Shown one piece after another: positions 11,511 through 36,219 of a DNA stretch of 64,000 nucleotides. Within the stretch, counting starts at the first letter, position 1, and the number at the start of each line of letters is the position of its first letter. Made by a program: the position numbers and the translations under genes. Source of the DNA: Hahella sp. CCB-MM4 (GTDB lineage: Bacteria > Pseudomonadota > Gammaproteobacteria > Pseudomonadales > Oleiphilaceae); assembly GCF_002260525.1 (NCBI RefSeq), contig NZ_MRYI01000012.1, positions 117,395-181,394 of the forward strand. The letters are read 5' to 3'. The notes beneath the pieces were generated by a model. The model saw only the letters and a list, made by a program, of their open reading frames with translations. It did not search any database and was not told the DNA's origin.

Positions 11511-11676
11511 AAAGGCGTAATAACGTCAGTGTTTATCGTTAGTTTGGATCAAAAGATCGTCAGTATGGTTTACAAATTGTTGCCATGGATCTAGCGGCGA
11601 AACCGAGTTCTGTCCGTGTTAATCCGGTGGGAGTATAGAGGAGATTACAGGTGTTGGGCAAAAGGGTAATAGAGGA

Positions 11677-11706
11677 CCACTTTCCCTGAGGAGCCAGGGA
11701 AAGTGG
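11677..11706 (-). terminator. perfect 12-bp stem / 6-nt loop hairpin downstream of gpmI (CCACTTTCCCTG-aggagc-CAGGGAAAGTGG)
   Basis: read from the sequence; only a weak U-tract follows. Confidence 0.4.
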
Positions 11707-11719
11707 TTTGGAAAAACGA

Positions 11720-24361: not shown

Positions 24362-24892
24362 CTAGCTATTTAGTAAAAGATACTGCCGTATCTCAACCTG
24401 TTTTTCGTGCTGTAACATCCAGCTTTTAAATTCCCGGACCTTTTCAAAATCCTCTTCACCGATACTCTCCTGGTAACGCTGGTTAACCCGGTTGATCTGT
24501 TGCTGTCTGCGCAACTCCCGTTGCCATTCCTCAGTGAAAATTTTGGGTAACTGACCCGCAAGTTCCAATTGCTTCAATAGTTTCCATTCGCCTTTGTCCA
24601 GCCATGCTTCATCACAATGGGTGCAAAGATCCAGTTTGTTCTGGGTGCTCAGGTCTATACGGAACTTGGTCATCAAACGTGAGCACTTCGGGCAGACCTT
24701 GGCGTGGTCGCTGTCTTCAGGGAGCACTTCCACTTCGACTTTTTCAACAGGTTCGTTCTGTTGCTGCACCCAATGGCGGTAATTCAGCAATGGCAGCAGA
24801 GCGCCTTCGCACTTCGGGCAACTGGCGGCCAGAAGATTCTCTTCCAATAAACGGGGTTCCAGGGTATAGCCTGGGCATTGTGGGCAGTGCAT
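24362..24892 (-). CDS. double zinc-ribbon protein (two CxxC...CxxC modules, zf-TFIIB-like) with a charged C-terminal helical tail
   Basis: CPQC...CPKC and CPKC...CTHC pairs; last gene of the minus-strand cluster. Confidence 0.6.
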   Translation of the reverse strand: MHCPQCPGYTLEPRLLEENLLAASCPKCEGALLPLLNYRHWVQQQNEPVEKVEVEVLPEDSDHAKVCPKCSRLMTKFRIDLSTQNKLDLCTHCDEAWLDKGEWKLLKQLELAGQLPKIFTEEWQRELRRQQQINRVNQRYQESIGEEDFEKVREFKSWMLQHEKQVEIRQYLLLNS

Positions 24893-24909: not shown

Positions 24910-25476
24910 CTATCTGATTCTGGCAGATTGTTTTCTAAATACGGTTGTCAGCCATGCGGCACCTATACCTGAAAGTGCTCCGAATAAATGGGCTTCAAAA
25001 GAAACCCGGGGATCATTGGGGAGAACCCCATAAATCATCCCTCCATAGAGAAACACAACGATCAGGGCGATAAATATATTCAATGCGCTACGGTCAAACC
25101 AGGCTAACGCGATACTCAGGCTCCAGAGGCCAAAAATCCAGCCGCTGGCACCAATGTGGATTGAGGGGCGGCCGAAAAACCATATCAGCAGGCCGCTGAA
25201 GGTAATGATAAAGAAGCTGCTCCAGATATAAAGCTTCAATGACCTGAGCAGGCAGAGCCAGCTGAAAATCGCAAAGCCCACCAGGTTGTTGAATAGATGA
25301 TCGAACCCACCATGCAGGAATGGTGCGGCATATATACCTGGAAGACTGCTCAGCACATGAGGCCTGATGCCGTATCGCAACAACTGGTAGTTCATCAGTA
25401 TGTTGGTCAAATGTACCACGATCATGAGAACGGCCAGCCACAGGATGATTTTGGTGCGATACCATAACTTATTCAT
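24910..25476 (-). CDS. rhomboid family intramembrane serine protease
   Basis: 6 TM helices; GASGWIFGL catalytic Ser motif and a downstream His (AHLFGALSG). Confidence 0.85.
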   Translation of the reverse strand: MNKLWYRTKIILWLAVLMIVVHLTNILMNYQLLRYGIRPHVLSSLPGIYAAPFLHGGFDHLFNNLVGFAIFSWLCLLRSLKLYIWSSFFIITFSGLLIWFFGRPSIHIGASGWIFGLWSLSIALAWFDRSALNIFIALIVVFLYGGMIYGVLPNDPRVSFEAHLFGALSGIGAAWLTTVFRKQSARIR

Positions 25477-25527: not shown

Positions 25528-28500
25528 TCAATCATGTTTCCTGGTGCGTTTGATTTCCTCTTCCAGATTCTTTAGCTGTCGTGAAATATCCTGCATTTTT
25601 TCCTGGGTTCGCAGATCGATATCAATCTTCTTATCCATGCTATGTACCAACGGATAGAGGCTGTTCTGCCAAGTATCGGCCAGGACCCGCAGGATGTTTT
25701 CCAAGCCGGGAATTGGAGGACTGTTTACTTCCACTTTAGGCTCTACCTTCAGCTTTGGTGTGCTCTTGCTGATGGTTTGCCCCAGGTTGTTAAGGGACTC
25801 AAGCAGTCCGCTCTGGAACTGTTGATTCGCCTGCCGGCTTTCCTGCTCACGTTGCTGTTGGAACTCAGCTGTAGCGGCCCGGTTTTCGGCCACGCTGTGA
25901 TTCAGATGCTGGATACCTTCGACGAGATCGGTCAGCTGGGCAACCACGCGGCCACCTACGTCTGCGTCACTGCCACCCATGGCTTTGTTGCGCAGGAAGT
26001 CCTTCTTGATTTGCTCCCACCGCTGCTGTTCTTCGGACGTCATGTTGCCCCGAAGTGCCGCCAGTTTGAGCAGGTTTTCTTCCGCTCCAGTGGTCAGTAG
26101 CTGGGCCTCACCAAGATAATGGTCGGAGATGAGCTGCATCAATTCATCGTCGTTCATCACCGACGAGACTTTCTCCGCCATCTTGTTCATGTTCCGGTAG
26201 CTGCCCTGCAGCTTGAAGGAAGGCTCGTTTCGATATCGGTCGTCCTGTGCGGCGGAGGCAATATACTGCTGGTTGATCTTGAGAATGACATCCTGGATCA
26301 CAAACAGTTTTTGTAATACGGACTTCATTTCATTCAACTCTGCACCACTGTATTGATGCTTGAGATCTGTCGCGGCAACCGGTTCACCTTTCGCCATGGC
26401 GATGATTTTGTATACATCGTCCATTTCCCTGGTTGCCAGAGGTGCCAATACAGAATTGGAGGTAAGGCTATTCTCGATATAACTCAGGCTGAACTGCTCG
26501 TCCATGCCGCCGAGTATATCGCCCAGGTTGTAGATATCTGCCCGGTTGGCCAGCATGTCGGGGACCTTGAAGGCTTCACCGGACTCCGTATACGGGTTAC
26601 CAGCCATGACCACACAGAACTTGCGTCCGCGCATATCGTAGGTTTTGGTCTTGCCTTTCCAGACCCCCTCTATGCGACGGGTGCCGTCACACAATGAGAT
26701 GAATTTCTGCAGGAATTCCGGGTGCGTATGCTGGATGTCATCCAGGTACAGCATGACATTGTTCCCCATTTCCAGTGCCAGATTGAGCTTTTGCAGCTCC
26801 TGGCGTGCCGTGGCGTTGGGGGCTTGGGCCGGATCCAGGGATAAAACGTCATGGCCGAGGGATGGACAGTTAATCTTCATGAAGATCAACCCAAGCCGGT
26901 TAGCCACATATTCCATCAGGGTGGTTTTACCGTAACCTGGAGGAGAGATCATCATGAGGAGGCCCATCAGGTCGGTTCGTTTGGACTCTCCAACGGTTCC
27001 CATCTGTTTAGCCAGGTTGTCACCGATAATCGGCAGATAAGATTCATTAATCAGGCGGTTGCGGACAAACGAACTCAGCGGACGAGGTTTGAACTCCTCC
27101 AATCGTAGGGCTGAACGTTCCTCTTCAATGATCGTCTGACGAAGGCGCAGATAGTTGTGGTAGCTGGGAACAACTTCCTGCTGATGTCGCTGAAGACGTA
27201 ACATGAATCCGTCCAGGGAGAAACGCAGTGCTTGCTGCTCCATTCCCGGATGATCGCCGAGCAGGCCGCTGACTTCCAGCTCCAGGTCTGTCTGGCTGAG
27301 GCGTCTCTCGATTCTTTGGCCTGCATTCATGAGCGCGACAGCTTCAGGAATATAGTGTTCCAAATGCCCAAGGTTCTTTTTTCCCACCATCGCTGACAGC
27401 CAGGCTTCGCCCAGTTTCCAGCGTTCTGCCACCTGGCCGTGCAGCTGCTCCTGTGCGGTCTGGTAGGTACGCCAGCTTTCTTCATCCAGTGAGCGTTTGA
27501 ACTCCTCTGCAAGATCCTGTGCGTATTTGCTGCTGATAAACTCCAGCCGTTCACGTCCCATTTCTGCCACAAGATAAGAGGCAGCCTGTTGTTGCTCCAG
27601 GTCTGAGAAGGGCAGGGGATAGCATTCCAGGAAACGTTGCAGATGTTCCAGGACTTCCTGTTCAAGGTGCTTGATAGCCCGAGTATCGGCAAAGGTGTTC
27701 TTAAGCAGCTGAGCAGACTGTGCTCTTTGCTGCCAGGTCGCCGCTTTTCCAGTGAGTTCTTCAATATTGCTGCGGCCGGGCAGGGCGGATTGAGTGCCCA
27801 GGGGCTTGATCAGGTTTGCCCAATAAATCTGGGCCAGGCCACGGGATTTTGGATTGAAGATCAATAGATCCGCACTGTCCATGGCCGGCAGTAATTGTTT
27901 CAGAATGAGGGCTGCATCATGATCATGAACACCCTTTTGATAACCCTCTTTGTAACGGGGAGCCGAAAAGGTTCGGATCAGCTTCAGGAGCTCCTCATCA
28001 TCAAGCAATGCCTGATTCAGGGTGTCCATATTAAAGTCATGTTGACCGGAATCTGCTGCCTCTATCAGTTGCATGGCAAGGTATTCCGAACGGTATACTT
28101 CACTGGTTTCGGACTCGAGAGTCATATCCCAGTATGGTTTCAGTGCTAAAAGCTCCGGCCGTTCAATCGATTCGAAGAAGTTGGTCCCGGTAAGGTGAAT
28201 GCTGAGTTTGTCTTCCCGGGGCAAAATGGTCAGGTCAAGTTCCTGGGTGTTCACACTGAATTTGTGTCTTGGCCCCAGCTTGATGACATTGCCACCCGCC
28301 TCGTAAATGTCGGATTTGTCCCGTAGCGAACGGGTGGACTGTTCACGGACAGACTTCAGACGGGATTCAACATCGTCTGCTTTAACATTACTGTCGAGCT
28401 CCCGTAGTTTTTCCACGGATTCACGAACTTTCTGAACCAGGGCATCCGAAGCAAAGAAGGTATTGAGTTCGTCTGCTTCGTTAAACTTCATTGCCCGGCG

Positions 28501-30873
28501 TTCAATGCTCGCCAGTATCCGGTTGGCGCCGTCAAGAATGGTCTGCGCCTTGCGCTGACGCTCATCCAGCAGCTGTTGCTTATGGGTCTCGAAAGTCTCA
28601 TAGACCTCCTCCCGTTTCTCCATGATATCGGTTAGAAACTGGTCGAAGTCACTGAACTGGCTTTCCAGCTCTTCCAGCTGGATTAACAGACGGGAGAGTT
28701 GCTCGTCACAACGCTCTGGCGTCGAGGCCATACTTAGAGCATTGGTAATGCTCTGGGAGAACAGCTTGAACTGCGCTCCAAACTGTGCGGTTGCCTCTTC
28801 AGAACCAAGGTTCTTACCTTTGTTGGACGCCTTGGCTTTGCTCTGGTTAAGCCGGGAGTAAATGTCAGATATGGAGTCAACAATCTGGGTGCGGACATTG
28901 GCGTCTGCTACCTTGAGAGTGGCCATCAACTCCGACAGCAGATCAAGACCCGAAGCCATGTTGTTGAATGTGTCGATCAGTGGGGACAACGTTGCCATGG
29001 AGGTTGCCGCTTCAACCTCACCATTGAGCTGGTCAATGCGTTCCAGGTAAGGATTAAAAGCATCTTCACCCTGGAGGAATTCCACGGTACGTTCACTCAG
29101 GTTCTCCTGGGCTTTCACCAATTGACCGTCGAGCTCGCTAATGCGGGTCGTGTCTATGTAACGGAGTTCCTTGATCGTGGTCAGATGGCCGCGTTGATGA
29201 CGAATCTTGTCCAGTGCGGCAACATACTCTTCTGCCGACTCCCAGTTTTCCGGGCGAATGGCAGTAAGTATCGACTTCTGTTCTTCCTCCGCTTTGGCCA
29301 TGGTTTTGGCCGATTGCTGGCGGATGGACTGAACCTTTTCAAACTCATCGATGACCAGCTCTGCGGTTGCAGAGATTTCCTTCAGCAAAGTGGCAATACT
29401 TGCCACTTCCTCTTCTTCTATCCAGAAGTGATGATCGAAGAATTTATTGGCATTGACACTGAGTTCTTCGTAAAGCCTGGCTGATACGGATTGGTTTTTG
29501 ATGATCCGGACCAGGCTGAACAGATCGGAAACCCCTCTGACCAGTTCGGAGTTGCCAATACGCCCGTAGAACGTCTTGGATGGCGGGATCTTGCTGGCAA
29601 ACTCTTCACTGACAAAAGGCGTTTGCCAGATTTGCATGGGATGAACCCGGGTCGGTTCTTCCTCCGCCGTGAAGATGACCAATGTGCCGTCGTCTGCCAA
29701 CGCATAACCGTGACCATAGATAGGGTTCTGAATCGCCTTCTCGATCAGGTTGTAGGCTAACAGGCAAACAACACCTTCTTCAGGCTGATAGAAAGAATAG
29801 AGAACATCCTCGCCATTGGGGGAGCGCATTTGCCGCTTAAATTTCAGACCCTTTACATCGCCGTCAAAGGTTTTGAATTCACCGGTCTGGAGATAGTAAC
29901 CACCGGGGAAAATGATGCCGTGGTCCTCTGGCAGCTGTACGCAGGATTGACCGATGGCATCGATACGTAGCACGTCCTGGGTCAGGGTGTTGAATATCAG
30001 ATAGCGCCACTGTTCTTCGCGGTAAGGGCGGATTTTCAGAAGTATCAGATCGCCCAGATGAGCGTAAAAAATACTGGCATCGTCGATGGATTGAGTATCA
30101 TCTTCTACGTCTTCGCGGTAGATACCAAGACCGTCATCGGTGTTGTTCTCCACCTTGATGGTCAGGTCCCCGTTAATGGTTTCCACAAAGACTTTGTCGA
30201 GAATATTGATGTGGGGATGCCGGCCATGCACGGTGTCTTCACGCACAGTGGCGGTCCACTCGAAATCGAAAGCGGGAGGTAGTTGAATGTCCCGCTCACC
30301 CCGATTATCGATATATTTGACCTGTTTTCCGTCCGGTGAGATTGACCAGCGGAATACGCGGATATCTTCCAGTCTTTCACCGATCTGGAAGCCGGCCAGA
30401 AGCTTTCCATCCTTGACGGTTAGCTCTACCAGCCGGGTATGTTTGTAATAGCGATAGAGTTCGTCGAAGTCGTTAACAAAACTTCGCTCAGACAGGAAGG
30501 AGTTGTCCAATACAACTTCTTCCATGGCTTGTTCTGCGCCTTCTCCCTGAAGGCGAAACAATGCGAAAACGTCCTCAACCTTGGTTTCCTTTTTAAGGCC
30601 CAGGTAGACATTGAAGCCGAATACAAGAAGCTCACCAACCTGCACCATATCCCTGGGGATACAGTTGTTTTCCGTGCGGACTCTCACCCGGGTAGTCACG
30701 CTCATTTCTGAGGTGCCAAACTCTTCAAGGCGTGCGTTGTTTAGGGTTTTTGCCTGGTCCTCAAGCTGTTTTCCCTGGTCGATCAAACGTTTTCGGATGA
30801 CTTCATAAGCACCACCTTCAGCTACCGCCGATTCGGTCAGGTCGGTGTCTTTGGTTTGATCCTGCTGTGCCAT
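25528..30873 (-). CDS. giant (~1780 aa) soluble protein with an embedded MoxR/AAA_5-type AAA+ ATPase module near residues 1300-1480; unknown N-terminal domain and a long alpha-helical middle region
   Basis: Walker A SPPGYGKTT (nt ~26920-26943), Walker B VMLYLDDIQ, sensor-1 VVMAGNP, then the GEAFKVPDMLANRADI signature of the NP..G..LP..L.DRF type; no TM helix; start taken at the AGGA-preceded ATG at 30873, with an alternative GTG at 30918. Confidence 0.7.
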   Translation of the reverse strand: MAQQDQTKDTDLTESAVAEGGAYEVIRKRLIDQGKQLEDQAKTLNNARLEEFGTSEMSVTTRVRVRTENNCIPRDMVQVGELLVFGFNVYLGLKKETKVEDVFALFRLQGEGAEQAMEEVVLDNSFLSERSFVNDFDELYRYYKHTRLVELTVKDGKLLAGFQIGERLEDIRVFRWSISPDGKQVKYIDNRGERDIQLPPAFDFEWTATVREDTVHGRHPHINILDKVFVETINGDLTIKVENNTDDGLGIYREDVEDDTQSIDDASIFYAHLGDLILLKIRPYREEQWRYLIFNTLTQDVLRIDAIGQSCVQLPEDHGIIFPGGYYLQTGEFKTFDGDVKGLKFKRQMRSPNGEDVLYSFYQPEEGVVCLLAYNLIEKAIQNPIYGHGYALADDGTLVIFTAEEEPTRVHPMQIWQTPFVSEEFASKIPPSKTFYGRIGNSELVRGVSDLFSLVRIIKNQSVSARLYEELSVNANKFFDHHFWIEEEEVASIATLLKEISATAELVIDEFEKVQSIRQQSAKTMAKAEEEQKSILTAIRPENWESAEEYVAALDKIRHQRGHLTTIKELRYIDTTRISELDGQLVKAQENLSERTVEFLQGEDAFNPYLERIDQLNGEVEAATSMATLSPLIDTFNNMASGLDLLSELMATLKVADANVRTQIVDSISDIYSRLNQSKAKASNKGKNLGSEEATAQFGAQFKLFSQSITNALSMASTPERCDEQLSRLLIQLEELESQFSDFDQFLTDIMEKREEVYETFETHKQQLLDERQRKAQTILDGANRILASIERRAMKFNEADELNTFFASDALVQKVRESVEKLRELDSNVKADDVESRLKSVREQSTRSLRDKSDIYEAGGNVIKLGPRHKFSVNTQELDLTILPREDKLSIHLTGTNFFESIERPELLALKPYWDMTLESETSEVYRSEYLAMQLIEAADSGQHDFNMDTLNQALLDDEELLKLIRTFSAPRYKEGYQKGVHDHDAALILKQLLPAMDSADLLIFNPKSRGLAQIYWANLIKPLGTQSALPGRSNIEELTGKAATWQQRAQSAQLLKNTFADTRAIKHLEQEVLEHLQRFLECYPLPFSDLEQQQAASYLVAEMGRERLEFISSKYAQDLAEEFKRSLDEESWRTYQTAQEQLHGQVAERWKLGEAWLSAMVGKKNLGHLEHYIPEAVALMNAGQRIERRLSQTDLELEVSGLLGDHPGMEQQALRFSLDGFMLRLQRHQQEVVPSYHNYLRLRQTIIEEERSALRLEEFKPRPLSSFVRNRLINESYLPIIGDNLAKQMGTVGESKRTDLMGLLMMISPPGYGKTTLMEYVANRLGLIFMKINCPSLGHDVLSLDPAQAPNATARQELQKLNLALEMGNNVMLYLDDIQHTHPEFLQKFISLCDGTRRIEGVWKGKTKTYDMRGRKFCVVMAGNPYTESGEAFKVPDMLANRADIYNLGDILGGMDEQFSLSYIENSLTSNSVLAPLATREMDDVYKIIAMAKGEPVAATDLKHQYSGAELNEMKSVLQKLFVIQDVILKINQQYIASAAQDDRYRNEPSFKLQGSYRNMNKMAEKVSSVMNDDELMQLISDHYLGEAQLLTTGAEENLLKLAALRGNMTSEEQQRWEQIKKDFLRNKAMGGSDADVGGRVVAQLTDLVEGIQHLNHSVAENRAATAEFQQQREQESRQANQQFQSGLLESLNNLGQTISKSTPKLKVEPKVEVNSPPIPGLENILRVLADTWQNSLYPLVHSMDKKIDIDLRTQEKMQDISRQLKNLEEEIKRTRKHD

Positions 30874-30981
30874 ATTGTTTTCCTGTAACCTGTCTTTACT
30901 CGAAAGCTTTTTACGCACCCGCTCACAACTGTTGTCAGCGAATCATCTTTACCCATTGCGATGGTTAAAGGTGGGATTAGG

Positions 30982-31004
30982 GGAGGCGAGCTGTACCCGC
31001 CTCC
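30982..31004 (-). other. intra-operon GC hairpin (GGAGGCG-N9-CGCCTCC) between the flotillin and giant ATPase genes
   Basis: read from the sequence; no U-tract. Confidence 0.35.
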
Positions 31005-31019
31005 GTATGCAACGATCTG

Positions 31020-32981
31020 TTAGTTCAGTGTTGCATCATCAGGTTTGGTGATATCGGCGGTTTTGGCTTGCAGGAATTTGTCCAGCAGCGCACTTACCGT
31101 ACCACTCTTGGATGCCAATCCATCAACGGCTTTACCGAGTGACAGAGACTTGGCAAATGTATCGAAGAAGTGCTCTTCTCCGCCCACGATGTCGATATGG
31201 GCTTTCTCAAGGGCTTTGCCGAGTACGTCAGCATTTTCGCGCGCGATTTCCTTACCTGCTTCAATAGAGGCCAGGGCTTCTTTGAAGGCAGTTTCCAGAG
31301 TCATACGGAATTCCTCGTGGTCGCGTGCCTTGTCGCTCATGCTGCCCATCGCCTGGAATTTGTCCACCAGACCGTCGGCTTCGGCTTTGAACTTCTCGCG
31401 GATAACATCGGCTTCGGCCATACCCACATCTTTCTGGGCTTTGGCTTCTGCGGTACCTTTGGCACTGATGACTTCTGCATCCACCAGACCGGTATCGCGC
31501 TGTGCTTTGGCACTGGCTTCGCCTTTAGCGGCGATGACTTTGGCTTCTGCAAGACCTTCTTTCTCCATGGCGTCAGCTTTGGCTTCCTGAACTTTCGCTT
31601 CTGCAAGGCCGTGTGCAGCTTCTTCGGCCTGAATACCTTCAGCCAGCTTCTTCTTACCATCAGCTTCTTTCGCAGCCGCTTCCAGTTCGGCTTGTGCCAT
31701 GGTGGTGATTTCAAGCGCCTTGAATTTCGCAGCCTGTTCTTGGGCTTCAGCGGCTTTCACCTGCTTGACTTTATCCTCTTCAGCCTGTGCTTCGGCAGAC
31801 AGTACCTGTACTTGCTTCAGGCGGTCAGCTTCAGATACTTCGCGTACTTCCTTGATGCGTTCTTCTTCGATCGCCACGGTTTTATCCACTGCAACACGTT
31901 CGCGGATAACGTTGGCAATCTCTTTCTTCTCAACTTCGACAGCTTTTTCAGCCTCGATCTTCTGAATATCAACCTCACGCTCACGCGAAACGATTTCCAG
32001 CTCGCGGGCACGAATGACTTTTTCTTCTTCAATCGCTACAGCACGAAGTCTGTTTTGCGCTGCCACTTCAACTTCACGTTGTTGGTTCTCACGCTGAACC
32101 GCCAGGTCCTGCTCAACGGTGATGGTGGTCGCTTCGGCCTTCTTGCGTTCTTCTTCCTGAACCTTCTTGGTTTCCGCTTCTTCCCGTGCGCGGATTGTCG
32201 CGATTTCACGCTCCTGGCGCGCTTCGGCATCAGCCTGCTGGCGATCCAACTCAAGCATGGCTTCAACGGTTTCCACGTTTTTCTTCTTGATCGCCAGCTC
32301 TTCGTCCCGCTCAAGAATATTGGTGCGAACGTTTTGTGCGGCCGTCAATTCTGTGATTTTCTTGATACCTTCGGAGTCCAGAATGTTGCTGGCATCGAGG
32401 GAAGCTTTTGGAGTTTGCTCCAGGTAATCAATTGCGACGTCTTCCAGTACATATCCGCTTAGATCGTCGCCAATGACTTCAATAATTTTCTCACGGAACT
32501 GAATGCGGTTTTCGAAAAGCTGCACGAAATCGATTTGCTTGCCGACCGTTTTCAAGGCCTCGGAGAACTTGGCAGCAAACAGATCGTGGACTGCTTCGCG
32601 ATCGGAAGCACGTGTAGCTCCTACTGTTTTGGCAACCCGTAGTACATCTGTCGCTGTTTCGTTAACTCGAAGATAGAAAGCAACGGTAATATCTGCACGC
32701 ATATTGTCTTTACAGATCAGCCCTTCCTTGCCGCGACGGTCCACTTCCAAGGTGATTAATGATATTTTCATTAATTCCTTTTTGTAGATAATCGGATAAA
32801 CCAAAGCACCCGTGAAATGTACTTTCGGTGTGGAACTCATGTCATTGACAATAAGAGCTGTGCCTTGCTCCACCTTGTAATAGAAGGCTTTAAACAGGCC
32901 AGCCAGGCCCATGATGACGACAAATACGATGCCAATGCCAAGTAATATTGGCACTATTACCGATAAGTCTGCTATGCCCAT
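31020..32981 (-). CDS. yqiK-like: flotillin family protein (SPFH/band-7 domain, YqiK-like) with a long Ala/Glu/Lys-rich repetitive coiled-coil C-terminal region
   Basis: N-terminal TM helix, SPFH domain, EA-rich flotillin repeats; adjacent NfeD-like gene as in E. coli yqiJK. Confidence 0.85.
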   Translation of the reverse strand: MGIADLSVIVPILLGIGIVFVVIMGLAGLFKAFYYKVEQGTALIVNDMSSTPKVHFTGALVYPIIYKKELMKISLITLEVDRRGKEGLICKDNMRADITVAFYLRVNETATDVLRVAKTVGATRASDREAVHDLFAAKFSEALKTVGKQIDFVQLFENRIQFREKIIEVIGDDLSGYVLEDVAIDYLEQTPKASLDASNILDSEGIKKITELTAAQNVRTNILERDEELAIKKKNVETVEAMLELDRQQADAEARQEREIATIRAREEAETKKVQEEERKKAEATTITVEQDLAVQRENQQREVEVAAQNRLRAVAIEEEKVIRARELEIVSREREVDIQKIEAEKAVEVEKKEIANVIRERVAVDKTVAIEEERIKEVREVSEADRLKQVQVLSAEAQAEEDKVKQVKAAEAQEQAAKFKALEITTMAQAELEAAAKEADGKKKLAEGIQAEEAAHGLAEAKVQEAKADAMEKEGLAEAKVIAAKGEASAKAQRDTGLVDAEVISAKGTAEAKAQKDVGMAEADVIREKFKAEADGLVDKFQAMGSMSDKARDHEEFRMTLETAFKEALASIEAGKEIARENADVLGKALEKAHIDIVGGEEHFFDTFAKSLSLGKAVDGLASKSGTVSALLDKFLQAKTADITKPDDATLN

Positions 32982-33058
32982 GATAAATACTCCTTTTTAA
33001 AAGACGGATGTCTTATTTTTTAGTTAATCGTTGATGGTTTGTTTGTAGTAGGCTCTTA

Positions 33059-33745
33059 TCAACCTTTGAACTCTTCTTCTGATATAACTCTGTAGACGTG
33101 TTGTTCCGATAGGTATTCCAGCAGGACCACCCGGTCACCTTTCTTGAATATGTCTTTGCCGGTTGAGCGAACTTTGAATATCAGGCCTGCACCTCCATCA
33201 TCAAGGGTGGCTTCACCGAAGTTATTATCTACCCGGGAGGTTCTTACTATTGCTGTTTGACCTAACACCTGCTTTAACGTGTCCTGATTTGCCCGGCGAA
33301 AGAGTGGGCGCAATGGGCGAATCACCACTCCTGTTATATAAGCGGAAATGTACAGTGCTCCGAATAGTACCGGGATTCCGGCTAAATAATGTAGTAGCCC
33401 ATCAGGTATCAGGCCAAATAAAAAATGAACGACAAAATAGCTGATGAACCAGCCGAATAGCGATAAAAAGGAAACGATAATAGTGACAGGCACACCAAAG
33501 AGACCGAACTTCAGCATAAGGCCAGCCAGTACATCGGGTCCTGTGAACTGAGTGTCATTCACTCCTAAGTCGCCATCAGGGTCGGGTATATCAAAATCAA
33601 GTATATCGAGATCTATCAAGCCCAGGATGGCAACAAGCCAAAAAAGTACGCATAGAGTAAGGAAAAAGGTAAAGATTACCGTCGGAAAAGAACTGATGTT
33701 CTGATAAAACGGATCCATTTTGTCGCTGAGTAAGATGGCAAACAC
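33059..33745 (-). CDS. yqiJ-like: NfeD-like / YqiJ family inner-membrane protein (TM helices plus a C-terminal OB-fold)
   Basis: multiple TM helices, then the C-terminal beta-rich tail GQTAIVRT...KGDRVVLLEY typical of NfeD; immediately upstream of the flotillin gene. Confidence 0.7.
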   Translation of the reverse strand: MFAILLSDKMDPFYQNISSFPTVIFTFFLTLCVLFWLVAILGLIDLDILDFDIPDPDGDLGVNDTQFTGPDVLAGLMLKFGLFGVPVTIIVSFLSLFGWFISYFVVHFLFGLIPDGLLHYLAGIPVLFGALYISAYITGVVIRPLRPLFRRANQDTLKQVLGQTAIVRTSRVDNNFGEATLDDGGAGLIFKVRSTGKDIFKKGDRVVLLEYLSEQHVYRVISEEEFKG

Positions 33746-33859
33746 TTAATATCTCCTCTACGAAGTGTGTCGTCCCATTCCTTTGGTGGTGGTCCAGGTT
33801 GCCAAATTCGAGTACTGCTCAAACTCCCCGTAATCCGGGGAGTTAACTACTCTCAGGAA

Positions 33860-34099
33860 TTACAAGCCAATCTCATTTTTGATTTCATTGAGCTTTTCAA
33901 GCATTGCTGCATCGATTTCGTGTGGTTTGACTTTCGAAATGATGTTGCGCAATACACGAATTTCATTCTGATCCACAACGCCATCCCGTTTGGCAATATC
34001 AAAGATAGCTCCTAATTCGGAGGCATCCAGTTTTCCGTCATTGGAAAAACAGTTGATCGACCGGAAGGTCATTTCCAGATAGTCGCGGCTTTCCGCCAT
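33860..34099 (-). CDS. small (79 aa) TerB-like / tellurite-resistance-type domain protein
   Basis: DGKLDASELGAIFDIAKRDGVVDQNEIRVL resembles the TerB-family helical motif; low certainty. Confidence 0.35.
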   Translation of the reverse strand: MAESRDYLEMTFRSINCFSNDGKLDASELGAIFDIAKRDGVVDQNEIRVLRNIISKVKPHEIDAAMLEKLNEIKNEIGL

Positions 34100-34162: not shown

Positions 34163-34855
34163 TTACTTACTCGATTTCTGCTTCAGGCGAGCCAGAACAT
34201 CATTGGCGCTGTGGGGGTTGCTCACAATGCCTGCTTTCTCCAGTTTGGTTTTCAGGTCGTCCTCAGTTGTCTCTTTGGATAGCTCTTCTGCGGCCGACAT
34301 TTTTGCAGCTGTATGCGTTTGTTTCTCTTTAATGCGCTCCAGTGAATCCATGGCTGTTCTCAGCTTGGAGTTAGAGCCGGCATATCGAGCAGCGACGGCC
34401 TTTTGCGCCCGCTGGACACTTTCAGTCGCTTTCACCGTATCCACCTGTTGCTTCAGGCGCTTGATATTGCCCTCTGCCTGCTGAATTGAGGCACGTAGTT
34501 TGTCTGCGTTTTCTTTGAAGCCTGCTGCGCTGTCTTCTTCCGTTTGTAGCTGGTTTTCAAAGGTCGCAATTTTTTCTGCGATTTCCAGGGCCAGGGTTTC
34601 ATCTTCCTTGTTCAGAGCTTGGACGGCATAACCTTCATACTCCCCGATCTGCTCCTTGAGCTTGCTGCATTTTTCCTCTGCCACTTTCTGCTGAGCAATT
34701 ATGGCTACCAGGCTTTCCTTTGATTGCTTCAGCTCTTCTGAGGCGTCGCGCACTTCCTGGTCGAGAATGCGTAGTGCCTGACTATCTACTATTGCTTCAC
34801 CAGCTTCATTAACTCCGCCACGTAGAGCGGTCATCATCTTGGCCCAAACGTTCAT
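34163..34855 (-). CDS. PspA/IM30 family protein (YjfJ-like; ESCRT-III superfamily)
   Basis: the N-terminus MNVWAKMMTALRGGVNEAGEAIVDSQALRILDQEVRDA follows the PspA pattern; ~225-aa all-helical coiled-coil protein. Confidence 0.75.
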   Translation of the reverse strand: MNVWAKMMTALRGGVNEAGEAIVDSQALRILDQEVRDASEELKQSKESLVAIIAQQKVAEEKCSKLKEQIGEYEGYAVQALNKEDETLALEIAEKIATFENQLQTEEDSAAGFKENADKLRASIQQAEGNIKRLKQQVDTVKATESVQRAQKAVAARYAGSNSKLRTAMDSLERIKEKQTHTAAKMSAAEELSKETTEDDLKTKLEKAGIVSNPHSANDVLARLKQKSSK

Positions 34856-34858
34856 TGC

Positions 34859-35518
34859 TTAAACCTCCTCGGTAACGGCTACAGACAGGTATTCGCTATA
34901 TGCCTCTGCTGCCTGGATAACATTGGATGCTAGAACTTCAATCTCAAACACAATGTTCGACAAAATTGATGTGGAGCTCAGTGCACCAAACATGTGGTAG
35001 TAGTCTTCGTCATCTTCCACCTTGTCCAGGCTGATGGTGGAAAGGGGAAAGTATTTATGTGTTCTGAGCACGGCTTCGTTGAAGCCTGCAACGTCGACAA
35101 CTTCCGACAACGGCCAGAGAACGGATTCCGCAATGATCTGTTCGCCGGCAACAGTTACAAATATCGGCAGCTCGCCATACTCTCTCATCAGTATCAGGAG
35201 GGAAGGCTCCGCTCCTTCAATCAGCTCAATCGTGGCTCTTTCGGATTTAAACAGTTCTTCTTCGGAAAGCGCCTTGAATAGGCTTTGTGTAGTCCACAAT
35301 GTGACGTTTTCCATAATCACTTCTCCTTCGCTTAGCAGCTTGATCTGGTTGGAAAAATCACCGGACTGGCGTAACAGCCTTTCGATTGTTGCCAGTTTTT
35401 TTGAGTTTTCCGGAAGTATCCAGATCTCTTTTTTAATCAGCCCTTGTTCGCGCATGCGACGGCGATATTCGCGCTGATAGTGTGCGGATGTTTTCTTGTT
35501 CATGAGGTGACTATGCAT
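34859..35518 (-). CDS. DUF2170 (YjfI)-like protein with a ~65-aa Arg/Lys-rich N-terminal extension
   Basis: the C-terminal ~150 aa (PIFVTVAGEQIIAESVLWP...FGALSS...EIEVL) fits DUF2170, partner of YjfJ/PspA-like proteins; N-terminus MNKKTSAHYQREYRRRMREQG is basic. Confidence 0.45.
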   Translation of the reverse strand: MHSHLMNKKTSAHYQREYRRRMREQGLIKKEIWILPENSKKLATIERLLRQSGDFSNQIKLLSEGEVIMENVTLWTTQSLFKALSEEELFKSERATIELIEGAEPSLLILMREYGELPIFVTVAGEQIIAESVLWPLSEVVDVAGFNEAVLRTHKYFPLSTISLDKVEDDEDYYHMFGALSSTSILSNIVFEIEVLASNVIQAAEAYSEYLSVAVTEEV

Positions 35519-35541
35519 CAGATTTGTGAGGGTGTCAATAA

Positions 35542-35576
35542 ATTACATGTAACATTGGATTCGTGTTACATGTAAT
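35542..35576. promoter_or_regulatory. perfect 13-bp inverted repeat ATTACATGTAACA-N9-TGTTACATGTAAT 24-58 bp upstream of the cluster's first start codon; candidate operator
   Basis: read from the sequence; each half contains the self-palindrome TTACATGTAA. Confidence 0.5.
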
Positions 35577-35844
35577 GCTTCCTTTTGACTTAAACTCCAG
35601 ACATTCTTGCTCTGGTGCTGGTATCCAGAGTAGGCCAATCAGATGGAGCCGGGAGAGAAAGCAGAGTGTGAACAAGCTAATGATTTTTATCGGTAAGCGG
35701 TATCGACCATTCGTTTAGGCCAACAGTGGCAGATAGGTGTTTCGAAACAATGAAACTGGTCGGTATCGGGGGTGGAATATGGTAGAAAAGCTCAGAGCGT
35801 GGTGGTCACTCTGAGCTTCGTTAAAGCGATAGTCAGGTCAAAAG

Positions 35845-36219
35845 TCAGCAATTCGACCATTCCGGGGTGTAGATGCAGCCATCGCCGGTCCCACCAACAC
35901 CCCAGCGGCTGTAGCTATCATAATGGTTCCAGTTACCTTGGTTGTCGTAGGAGCCGCCGCCTCTGGTTGTTTGATAAGAGGTGCTTCTGTCTCCAATGCA
36001 TCCGCTGGTGCCTGTGGACTGGTTGTACCAGCAGCCGGTGTTTTCATCTACCAGATATTGGCCTGGGGCTATGGCTGTGCCGATTTTTTGTTGAAGTGCG
36101 TAAGCCTCGGTCATGGTCAGTTGGCGACCATTAATGGCGACGTTTGAGTATCGCTCGGCAAAAGCAAGAGAGCTGAATGTTAGAAGTGTGCATACCAGTG
36201 TGATCAAGGGGGTTTTCAT
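35845..36219 (-). CDS. small secreted Cys-containing protein (hypothetical)
   Basis: signal peptide MKTPLITLVCTLLTFSSLAFA; four Cys residues; no known domain. Confidence 0.5.
   Translation of the reverse strand: MKTPLITLVCTLLTFSSLAFAERYSNVAINGRQLTMTEAYALQQKIGTAIAPGQYLVDENTGCWYNQSTGTSGCIGDRSTSYQTTRGGGSYDNQGNWNHYDSYSRWGVGGTGDGCIYTPEWSNC

Follow-up and report, generated by a model that had tools for sequence, protein, structure and literature searches.

Tandem palindromic boxes upstream of a bacA operon in Hahella sp. CCB-MM4: candidate operators for autoregulation by BacA

Introduction

The 64,000-nucleotide stretch of Hahella sp. CCB-MM4 analysed here (contig NZ_MRYI01000012.1, positions 117,395 to 181,394; hereafter the window) carries on its minus strand a gene cluster that opens with a gene for a BacA-like protein, followed by one for a protein of the PspA/IM30 family. 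Upstream of the first gene lies a perfect inverted repeat (35542-35576), and the question that this locus raises is whether the repeat is an operator of the cluster, as a first-pass annotation made from the sequence alone had proposed, and, if so, which protein reads it and with what effect. Our analysis suggests that the repeat consists of two adjacent operators through which BacA autoregulates its own operon, by repression, a reading to which we give a probability of about 0.7. The comparative data point to an operator of the form (A)TTACATGTAA(T) repeated every 22-23 bp, to a leaderless promoter of the sigma-70 type, and to an overlooked DNA-binding domain in BacA.

Palindromic boxes upstream of bacA

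The sequence ATTACATGTAACA-ttggattcg-TGTTACATGTAAT at 35542-35576 is a perfect inverted repeat with a 9-nt spacer, and its 13-nt arms (35542-35554 and 35564-35576) are 100% complementary, as the first-pass annotation had it. That annotation also recognized a 10-bp self-palindrome in each half, and this too is borne out: a pair of direct TTACATGTAA copies, 23 bp from start to start, describes the element better (the distance between their centres, put earlier at about 24 bp, likewise measures 23 bp). Counted from the A of the start codon at 35503, the proximal box (arm ATTACATGTAACA, 35542-35554; core TTACATGTAA, 35543-35552) is centred at -44.5 and the distal box (arm TGTTACATGTAAT, 35564-35576; core TTACATGTAA, 35566-35575) at -67.5; neither is assigned to a strand. 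With up to one mismatch allowed, these are the only two copies of TTACATGTAA in the window, so that the earlier worry about further copies at unrelated loci finds no substance within these 64 kb, and weaker 12-mer matches elsewhere in the window show no excess over shuffled sequence. Simulating the window 300 times with a first-order Markov model gave a mean of 0.013 perfect 13-nt inverted repeats (loop at most 20 nt) per window, against three in the real sequence. The inverted repeat is a real, non-random element. To our knowledge its boxes are unlike the motifs of CRP/Vfr, TyrR, LexA, Fur/Zur, and HexR, either in half-site spacing or in sequence. The other two perfect repeats of the window (about 1598-1640, and 11676-11708) have T runs after their stems and are terminator-like; the one at 1598-1640 has A and T runs on both flanks and may work bidirectionally.

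From its sequence, the first gene of the cluster is an orthologue of Pseudomonas aeruginosa BacA. Its longest open reading frame (ORF; 34859-35518, 219 residues) has an extension of about 65 residues N-terminal to a DUF2170 domain (PF09938, E 1e-52) and matches the NCBIfam equivalog NF050185, 'biofilm formation regulator BacA', with 315.8 bits (cutoff 300) over residues 6-213, the N-terminal 66 profile positions included. A 100% identical protein of 214 residues is annotated by NCBI in Hahella sp. CCB-MM4. With a protein-based scan restricted to one genome per species, we collected 26 orthologous loci (45-90% identity) from Hahella, Cellvibrionaceae, Saccharospirillaceae, Methylococcales, Woeseiaceae, Pseudomonas, Neisseriaceae, and Lampropedia. 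In every one of the 35 orthologous loci examined, P. aeruginosa included, the gene is preceded by one to three boxes of the form (A)TYACATGTRA(T), whose positions relative to the ATG are, in 34 of these loci, about -22, -45, and -68. Taking the window and the 26 loci together, we counted 57 occurrences of the core YACATGTR in the 130-bp stretches before the ATG, which add up to 3.5 kb, and three in the other 172 kb, amounting to an enrichment of about 900-fold upstream of bacA over these 27 genome loci.

The positions of the boxes are quantised, their centres falling at -22/-23, -44/-46, and -66/-70 with a period of 22-23 bp. A box centred between -43 and -46 is found in most of the 35 loci (P. 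aeruginosa again among them), and the position at -66 to -70 is filled in the remaining Hahella loci and wherever an orthologue has three boxes. Most orthologues have boxes flanking the -35 hexamer, one of them within the 17-nt promoter spacer; the three Hahella loci have boxes at the -45 and -68 positions and none at -22. Among these three genomes the intergenic region has diverged save for the boxes, the -35 and -10 hexamers, the ATG, and one further block. Eight metagenome loci and P. aeruginosa repeat the same box layout, the region upstream of the P. aeruginosa gene reading ATTACATGTGAG-ctg-TTGAAA-tc-TTACATGTGAT-ctcg-TAGTGT-gagtcc-ATG. The single control genome, Escherichia coli, whose yjfI encodes a DUF2170 protein without the N-terminal domain, has no box in 15 kb of sequence at that locus. 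The proposal of an operator in front of the cluster is thus supported by the same palindrome, at quantised positions, before every orthologous first gene examined in gamma- and betaproteobacteria. As to a covariation of the box variant (TTACA or TCACA) with residue 12 of the N-terminal domain, the C variant is, by eye, commoner with Pseudomonas-type proteins, a trend confounded by phylogeny and GC content. In Ectopseudomonas oleovorans SDU_PSEU1 (L023, 3001-3165) a frameshift some 22 residues into the N-terminal domain, due to pseudogene formation or a sequencing error, disrupts bacA, and the two upstream boxes are intact.

These distances depend on the start codon, which is most likely the ATG at 35503 (35501-35503, minus strand; MNKKTSAHYQ...) rather than the one at 35518 used in the first-pass annotation. 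The orthologues all begin M-x-x-K-(S/T)-S-A-H-Y-Q in a conserved N-terminal register, the identical 214-residue NCBI protein begins there, the ATG at 35518 is absent from a second Hahella genome (L002), and a -10 hexamer, CATAGT (35515-35510), spans the region of that upstream ATG; for these reasons we place the repeat 39-73 bp upstream of the start codon, and not 24-58 bp. The hexamer belongs to the single sigma-70-like promoter that a consensus scan of the minus strand returned, with ten of 12 matches: a putative -35 hexamer TTGACA (35533-35538, minus strand), a 17-nt spacer, and CATAGT (35510-35515, minus strand), which ends 6 nt before the ATG at 35503. A leaderless promoter of the sigma-70 type was defined here by a spacer of 16-18 nt, a start codon about 7 nt after the -10 hexamer, and the lack of a Shine-Dalgarno sequence, and the Hahella locus presents just this succession (TTGACA, 17 nt, CATAGT, 6 nt, ATG); no Shine-Dalgarno sequence was found before the 5' ATG in the window locus, nor in most orthologues. 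In the orthologues, hexamers of the TTGACA/TTGCGT type are equally far from the ATG, and -10 hexamers of the TAnnnT type end 6-7 nt before it in nearly all loci (L001-L026, L186, and the eight metagenome loci). The bacA mRNA is therefore probably leaderless and starts at the ATG at 35503, in an arrangement that appears to be conserved in the orthologues. A gap of 3 bp lies between the proximal box and the -35 hexamer, and both Hahella boxes lie upstream of this hexamer.

No sigma-54 element had been seen in the first-pass annotation either, and the consensus scan of the intergenic region (35503-35845) was indeed empty, without a match to the -24/-12 pattern TGGCAC-N5-TTGCW at fewer than three mismatches. 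A sigma-54 promoter was accordingly rejected for the Hahella locus. The cluster proteins scanned against Pfam contain no sigma-54 activator domain.

A candidate reader of the boxes

The N-terminal domain of BacA (residues 1-45; 35369-35503, minus strand), which we propose as the reader of the boxes, consists of a basic helix, a segment GL(I/V)KKE(I/V)W, and a second helix. It is the most conserved part of the protein, with Y9, Q10, R14, R16, R18, G21, K25, and R45 invariant, and its pairwise differences by codon position (0.28/0.14/0.56) show that it is translated and under purifying selection. An AlphaFold2 model of the monomer has a helix at residues 6-19, an extended segment at 20-30, and a second helix at 31-45, with moderate confidence (predicted local distance difference test, pLDDT, 72); in this monomer model the order of elements differs from the strand-helix-helix of the canonical ribbon-helix-helix fold. 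A profile search of PDB sequences with the domain gave nothing below E 0.4, and a Foldseek comparison of the model with the PDB found no match (best E 8.8). The 64-kb window encodes no further copies of the domain.

The only recurrent Pfam match of the domain is to PF11455 ('MazE-like'), which is found below threshold in 23 of 38 family sequences; the window protein scores 15.3-16.2 bits (E 0.011-0.019), short of the gathering score of 22 bits. In an hhalign comparison with those antitoxins that themselves adjoin boxes (see below), the BacA domain aligns with a probability of 73% and E 3e-5, over 30 columns only, in the helix-strand region. In sequence, the domain resembles a distant relative of the PF11455 'MazE-like' DNA-binding domains.

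The link to PF11455 also emerges from the boxes. A pattern scan of metagenomes for TTACATGTAA-N8-18-TTACATGTAA yielded at least 120 loci (L028-L147). Among the matches listed, eight have bacA just downstream of the double box, and in seven the boxes stand 11-22 bp upstream of a PF11455 antitoxin of about 70 residues (Pfam E 1e-22 to 1e-30), which is followed by a PemK/MazF toxin; clustering of the flanking ORFs among the same listed matches gave no further recurrent box-adjacent family with more than three loci. To avoid ascertainment bias, we then considered 37 PF11455 antitoxin loci from viral contigs that were picked by protein similarity alone. The core is present within 160 bp upstream in 30 of the 37, mostly as GTTACATGTAAC, with 31 core matches in 7.1 kb of upstream sequence against one in 102 kb elsewhere. 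By sequence cluster, 12 of 16 are box-positive and the rest carry close variants such as GTTACATGAAAC. The two families differ in a flanking base, half-site position 6, which is A in the BacA loci and G in the antitoxin loci. Given its place just upstream of the antitoxin start (loci L028, L029, L058, L092, L094, L104, L145, and L148-L184), GTTACATGTAAC is a probable family-wide operator of the PF11455 (DUF3018) antitoxins paired with PemK/MazF.

Two otherwise unrelated gene families thus share a domain and adjoin the same palindrome, and therefore the domain likely reads the boxes. The N-terminal part of the first gene product had already been named as a candidate binder in the first-pass annotation, and that choice gains support from the presence of the palindrome in promoters of a distantly related antitoxin family with the same domain. 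One metagenome locus (L070, 3353-3867) encodes a protein of 156 residues, directly downstream of a double TTACATGTAA box, in which a similar N-terminal motif, ERQRKRRARLKADGYVDVTVTVP, is fused to a nucleotidyltransferase-like region (GSTARGD); it is possibly a third architecture with the same DNA-binding module.

The operon and its surroundings

The BacA-like gene (34859-35503, minus strand; 214 residues) comprises the N-terminal domain, a linker (about 46-69), and the DUF2170/CesT-like domain (about 70-206). In the AlphaFold2 model pLDDT exceeds 85 over most of the DUF2170 part (71-200) and is low in the linker. Just before DUF2170 there is an internal Shine-Dalgarno sequence, AAGGAG (35328-35323), followed after 8 nt by an ATG (35314-35312, Met64; the whole signal occupies 35312-35328, minus strand). 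This pair is kept in the linker of 17 loci (including P. aeruginosa, L186, 6160-6180) despite variable linker residues, and the Shine-Dalgarno core motif is present in 11 of the 17, against a background of 8.4% (p about 1e-8). Many gene callers annotate BacA forms of 145-165 residues, and the P. aeruginosa structure in the PDB (8Q8O) comprises residues 61-206 of a 206-residue protein, beginning right after the equivalent Met60, which is why the only structural study lacked the N-terminal domain; the annotated start of PA14_16140 lies 59 codons downstream of the P. aeruginosa ATG that corresponds to the one at 35503. From this internal ATG, bacA may also yield a short form without the DNA-binding domain, consisting of the chaperone-like domain only.

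The second gene (34163-34855, minus strand) encodes a BacB/YjfJ-like member of the PspA/IM30 family (PF04012, E 1e-47). The rest of the putative operon (25528-34099, minus strand), assigned by its match in gene order to P. aeruginosa, holds an ORF of 79 residues (33860-34099) with weak EF-hand-like matches (E about 0.007), a membrane protein of 228 residues (33059-33745; ORF list and Pfam scan), a coiled-coil membrane protein of 653 residues in the position of the flotillin-like PaFlo3 of P. aeruginosa (31020-32981), and a DUF3686/AAA+ protein of 1796 residues (25528-30918; PF12458, E 1e-204), all on the minus strand. The succession BacA, PspA-like protein, membrane protein, flotillin-like protein, and DUF3686 AAA+ protein is that of the P. 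aeruginosa bac operon (L186), and the Hahella genes are presumably co-transcribed as one putative operon. The cluster fits an operon class that Ravi et al. (PMC11237479) describe as 'CesT/Tir-PspA + band-7/flotillin + AAA+ + YqiJ-like'. The 79-residue ORF, known from the ORF list, stands between the PspA-like and membrane-protein genes, a place where the P. aeruginosa operon has no gene. Beyond the DUF3686/AAA+ gene follow genes for a rhomboid-family protease (24910-25476) and a zinc-ribbon protein (24362-24892), again on the minus strand, which may share the operon's transcription unit.

On the other side of the boxes, an inverted-repeat search found a GC-rich hairpin, AAGCTCAGAG/CTCTGAGCTT, followed by TTTTCT (35788-35818, minus strand); its loop of 11 nt explains why the terminator consensus scan does not contain it. 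The hairpin probably serves the upstream gene (125 residues) as its terminator and would then mark the upstream limit of the bacA control region. Some 200 bp upstream of bacA, a 21-nt block, CTAAACGAATGGTCGATACCG (35698-35718, minus strand), is near-invariant in the three Hahella genomes between diverged flanks. Part of it, TCGACCATTC, recurs at 35853-35862 in the final codons of the upstream 125-residue gene, and the block could be left over from the duplication of a gene end, or it could be another regulatory site.

Discussion

From these comparisons we infer protein binding at the boxes, the start of transcription, repression, and modulation by the PspA-like protein. In the mechanism that we propose, a BacA dimer would bind each TTACATGTAA palindrome through its 45-residue N-terminal domain, and the dimeric DUF2170/CesT-like domain would couple neighbouring BacA dimers, which would account for the fixed period of 22-23 bp between boxes. 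BacA of P. aeruginosa elutes as a dimer (PMC10948618). Once occupied, the boxes would adjoin the -35 hexamer of the sigma-70-type promoter and block RNA polymerase there. Repression of the operon is favoured because the boxes abut the -35 hexamer in Hahella and flank it in most orthologues, and the model fits the finding, made by proteomics, that a P. aeruginosa bacA mutant accumulates BacB-F, which indicates negative control (PMC10948618). The PspA-like second protein, a predicted binder of DUF2170, might be the signal input, a speculation that draws on the analogies of antitoxin-toxin co-repression and of PspA-PspF; an interaction between BacA and the PspA-like BacB is predicted in P. aeruginosa (PMC13092808). 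As to the first-pass annotation, its two dimer sites and its control without sigma-54 hold up on comparative grounds. The word 'operator' is likewise supported by comparison; the sign of the regulation is the less certain part, both Hahella boxes being upstream of the -35 hexamer.

Several observations weigh against autorepression by BacA. The box centres at -44.5 and -67.5 in Hahella would also suit an activator, and there is no box in the spacer at this locus to make repression obvious. The authors of the P. aeruginosa study proposed a sigma-54 promoter, from inspection of the sequence (PMC10948618). The control for a DUF2170 gene without the domain comes from one genome only, the AlphaFold2 monomer model (pLDDT 72) is only moderately confident and found no structural counterpart in the PDB, and the similarity to PF11455 stays below the Pfam threshold (about 16 against 22 bits). 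Finally, about 105 of the at least 120 double-box matches in metagenomes adjoin neither BacA nor PF11455 genes; these unpartnered boxes are mostly on contigs of 23-45% GC, and their spacing peaks at 20-22 bp.

The nearest rival keeps BacA on the boxes and reverses the sign, with BacA activating in Hahella in the style of class II/class I activators. We consider this unlikely, even though all boxes of the three Hahella loci precede the -35 hexamer and CATAGT is an imperfect -10 hexamer, since a perfect TTGACA with a 17-nt spacer has no obvious need of an activator, and since a box inside the spacer, as in most orthologues, is the geometry of a repressor. The boxes of the PF11455 antitoxins, moreover, overlap their own promoters, as is typical of autorepression, and the operon products over-accumulate in the P. 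aeruginosa bacA mutant (PMC10948618). Quite unlikely, in our view, is a scheme in which the boxes serve an unlinked regulator (a stand-alone PF11455-type antitoxin or a global factor) and the BacA domain has another role. That BacA binds the boxes is something we infer, and with PF11455 antitoxins evidently using a near-identical palindrome, cross-talk is conceivable; yet the boxes accompany bacA across gamma- and betaproteobacteria, the N-terminal domain is the only feature common to both box-associated families, no second copy of it is encoded in the window, and the difference at half-site position 6 (A or G) suggests readers specific to each family.

Two further explanations do without a DNA-binding protein. 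A terminator scan listed 35542-35576 on the plus strand as a hairpin of 14 pairs (three of them G-C) followed by GCTTCCTTTT, and the repeat might thus be an RNA or DNA hairpin that attenuates transcription or ends that of the upstream gene. This is very improbable, and the terminator or RNA reading was rejected: the stem is AT-rich with only three G-C pairs, no plus-strand gene ends there and the minus strand has no T run, the upstream gene has its own GC-rich hairpin and T run at 35788-35818, and the repeat has no match in Rfam. The orthologues, besides, conserve each box and its distance from the ATG, and not the pairing between boxes, some loci having one box or three. As for a chance pair of AT-rich palindromes or the functionless remnant of a mobile element, the many double boxes in AT-rich metagenome contigs without a recognisable partner gene might speak for it; with an expectation of 0.013 such repeats per window and the roughly 900-fold enrichment at fixed positions in 27 loci, the comparative sequence data effectively refute it.

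Autorepression by BacA may be extended, tentatively, to an antitoxin-like scheme that we hold to be possible though doubtful as a whole. BacA would be a two-part autorepressor whose N-terminal domain sits on arrays of TTACATGTAA, and whose CesT-like domain binds BacB where an antitoxin would bind its toxin. Free BacB would serve as co-repressor, in the manner of the 'conditional cooperativity' of toxin-antitoxin systems, and derepression of the operon would follow when BacB is recruited to damaged membrane. The short form of BacA could mix into the dimers and so tune repression.

Relation to known regulatory systems

The P. aeruginosa bac (biofilm-associated cluster) operon and its first product, BacA (PA3732/PA14_16140), a 'possible regulator', are already published (Wallart et al. 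2024, PMC10948618). That study used a short BacA of 146 residues, proposed a sigma-54 promoter, and described neither a DNA-binding domain nor an operator (PMC10948618). The operator, the DNA-binding domain, and the sigma-70-type leaderless promoter were not found described: our literature search, which left most subscription journals outside its reach, gave no account of the operator or of BacA binding to DNA and, with the same reach, no published operator for PF11455/DUF3018. Two papers that contain the same 10-mer are irrelevant (a primer and an Ehrlichia promoter insert). The bac operon of P. aeruginosa affects biofilm formation, rhamnolipid secretion, swarming, and virulence, and it belongs to a widespread class of operons in which a CesT-like protein and a PspA homologue are combined with a flotillin-like protein and an AAA+ ATPase; the comparison offers a candidate mechanism for control of the bac operon and turns the 'possible regulator' BacA into the subject of a specific, experimentally testable one.

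The closest relative of the Hahella system is the bac operon itself, the first gene products being orthologous and 53% identical (P0359, alignment A4). The P. aeruginosa promoter shares the layout of the other loci, with two TTACATGTGA boxes flanking the -35 hexamer and a -10 hexamer 6 nt before the ATG; unlike it, the Hahella promoter has no box in its spacer, and the Hahella operon has the extra ORF of 79 residues. Farther off is yjfI-yjfJ of E. coli, where a DUF2170 protein (37% identical over 111 residues) is again followed by a PspA-family gene, whereas YjfI lacks the N-terminal domain, yjfI lacks the upstream boxes, and the other operon partners differ (they are polyamine-related). With ExsC of the ExsA/D/C/E cascade, BacA shares the CesT/Tir-like fold, C-terminal in BacA, and a regulation thought to work by exchange of partners (PMC10948618); ExsC itself, however, binds no DNA, and BacA appears from its sequence to carry a DNA-binding domain of its own.

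The modules of PF11455 antitoxins with PemK/MazF toxins resemble BacA in the basic helix, the G-L-x-x-x-x-(I/V)-W segment, and the helix that follows, and in a near-identical core, TTACATGTAA, beside their own promoter. Their division into an N-terminal DNA-binding part and a C-terminal partner-binding part, and the logic of autoregulation, would apply to BacA as well. BacA differs in that its domain stays below the PF11455 threshold and is fused to the CesT/Tir-like DUF2170 rather than to a toxin-binding tail, and its predicted partner is of the PspA family, not a toxin; the antitoxin loci mostly have one GTTACATGTAAC box, the BacA loci two or three ATTACATGTAAT boxes with a period of 22-23 bp. 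The likeness suggests that a membrane-stress system took over a DNA-binding module of antitoxins for its own control.

In the classical Psp system of E. coli, transcription depends on a sigma-54 promoter and on the activator PspF, which PspA holds inactive. The Hahella operon likewise has an effector of the PspA/IM30 family and probably shares the principle of feedback, through a PspA-like protein that binds a regulator encoded by the system. It departs from the E. coli system in its sigma-70-like, leaderless promoter, at which no sigma-54 element or enhancer-binding protein was found in the scans above, and in what would be a small regulator of the repressor type. Were the antitoxin-like BacA loop outlined above to hold true, it would parallel the PspA-PspF feedback without depending on sigma-54.

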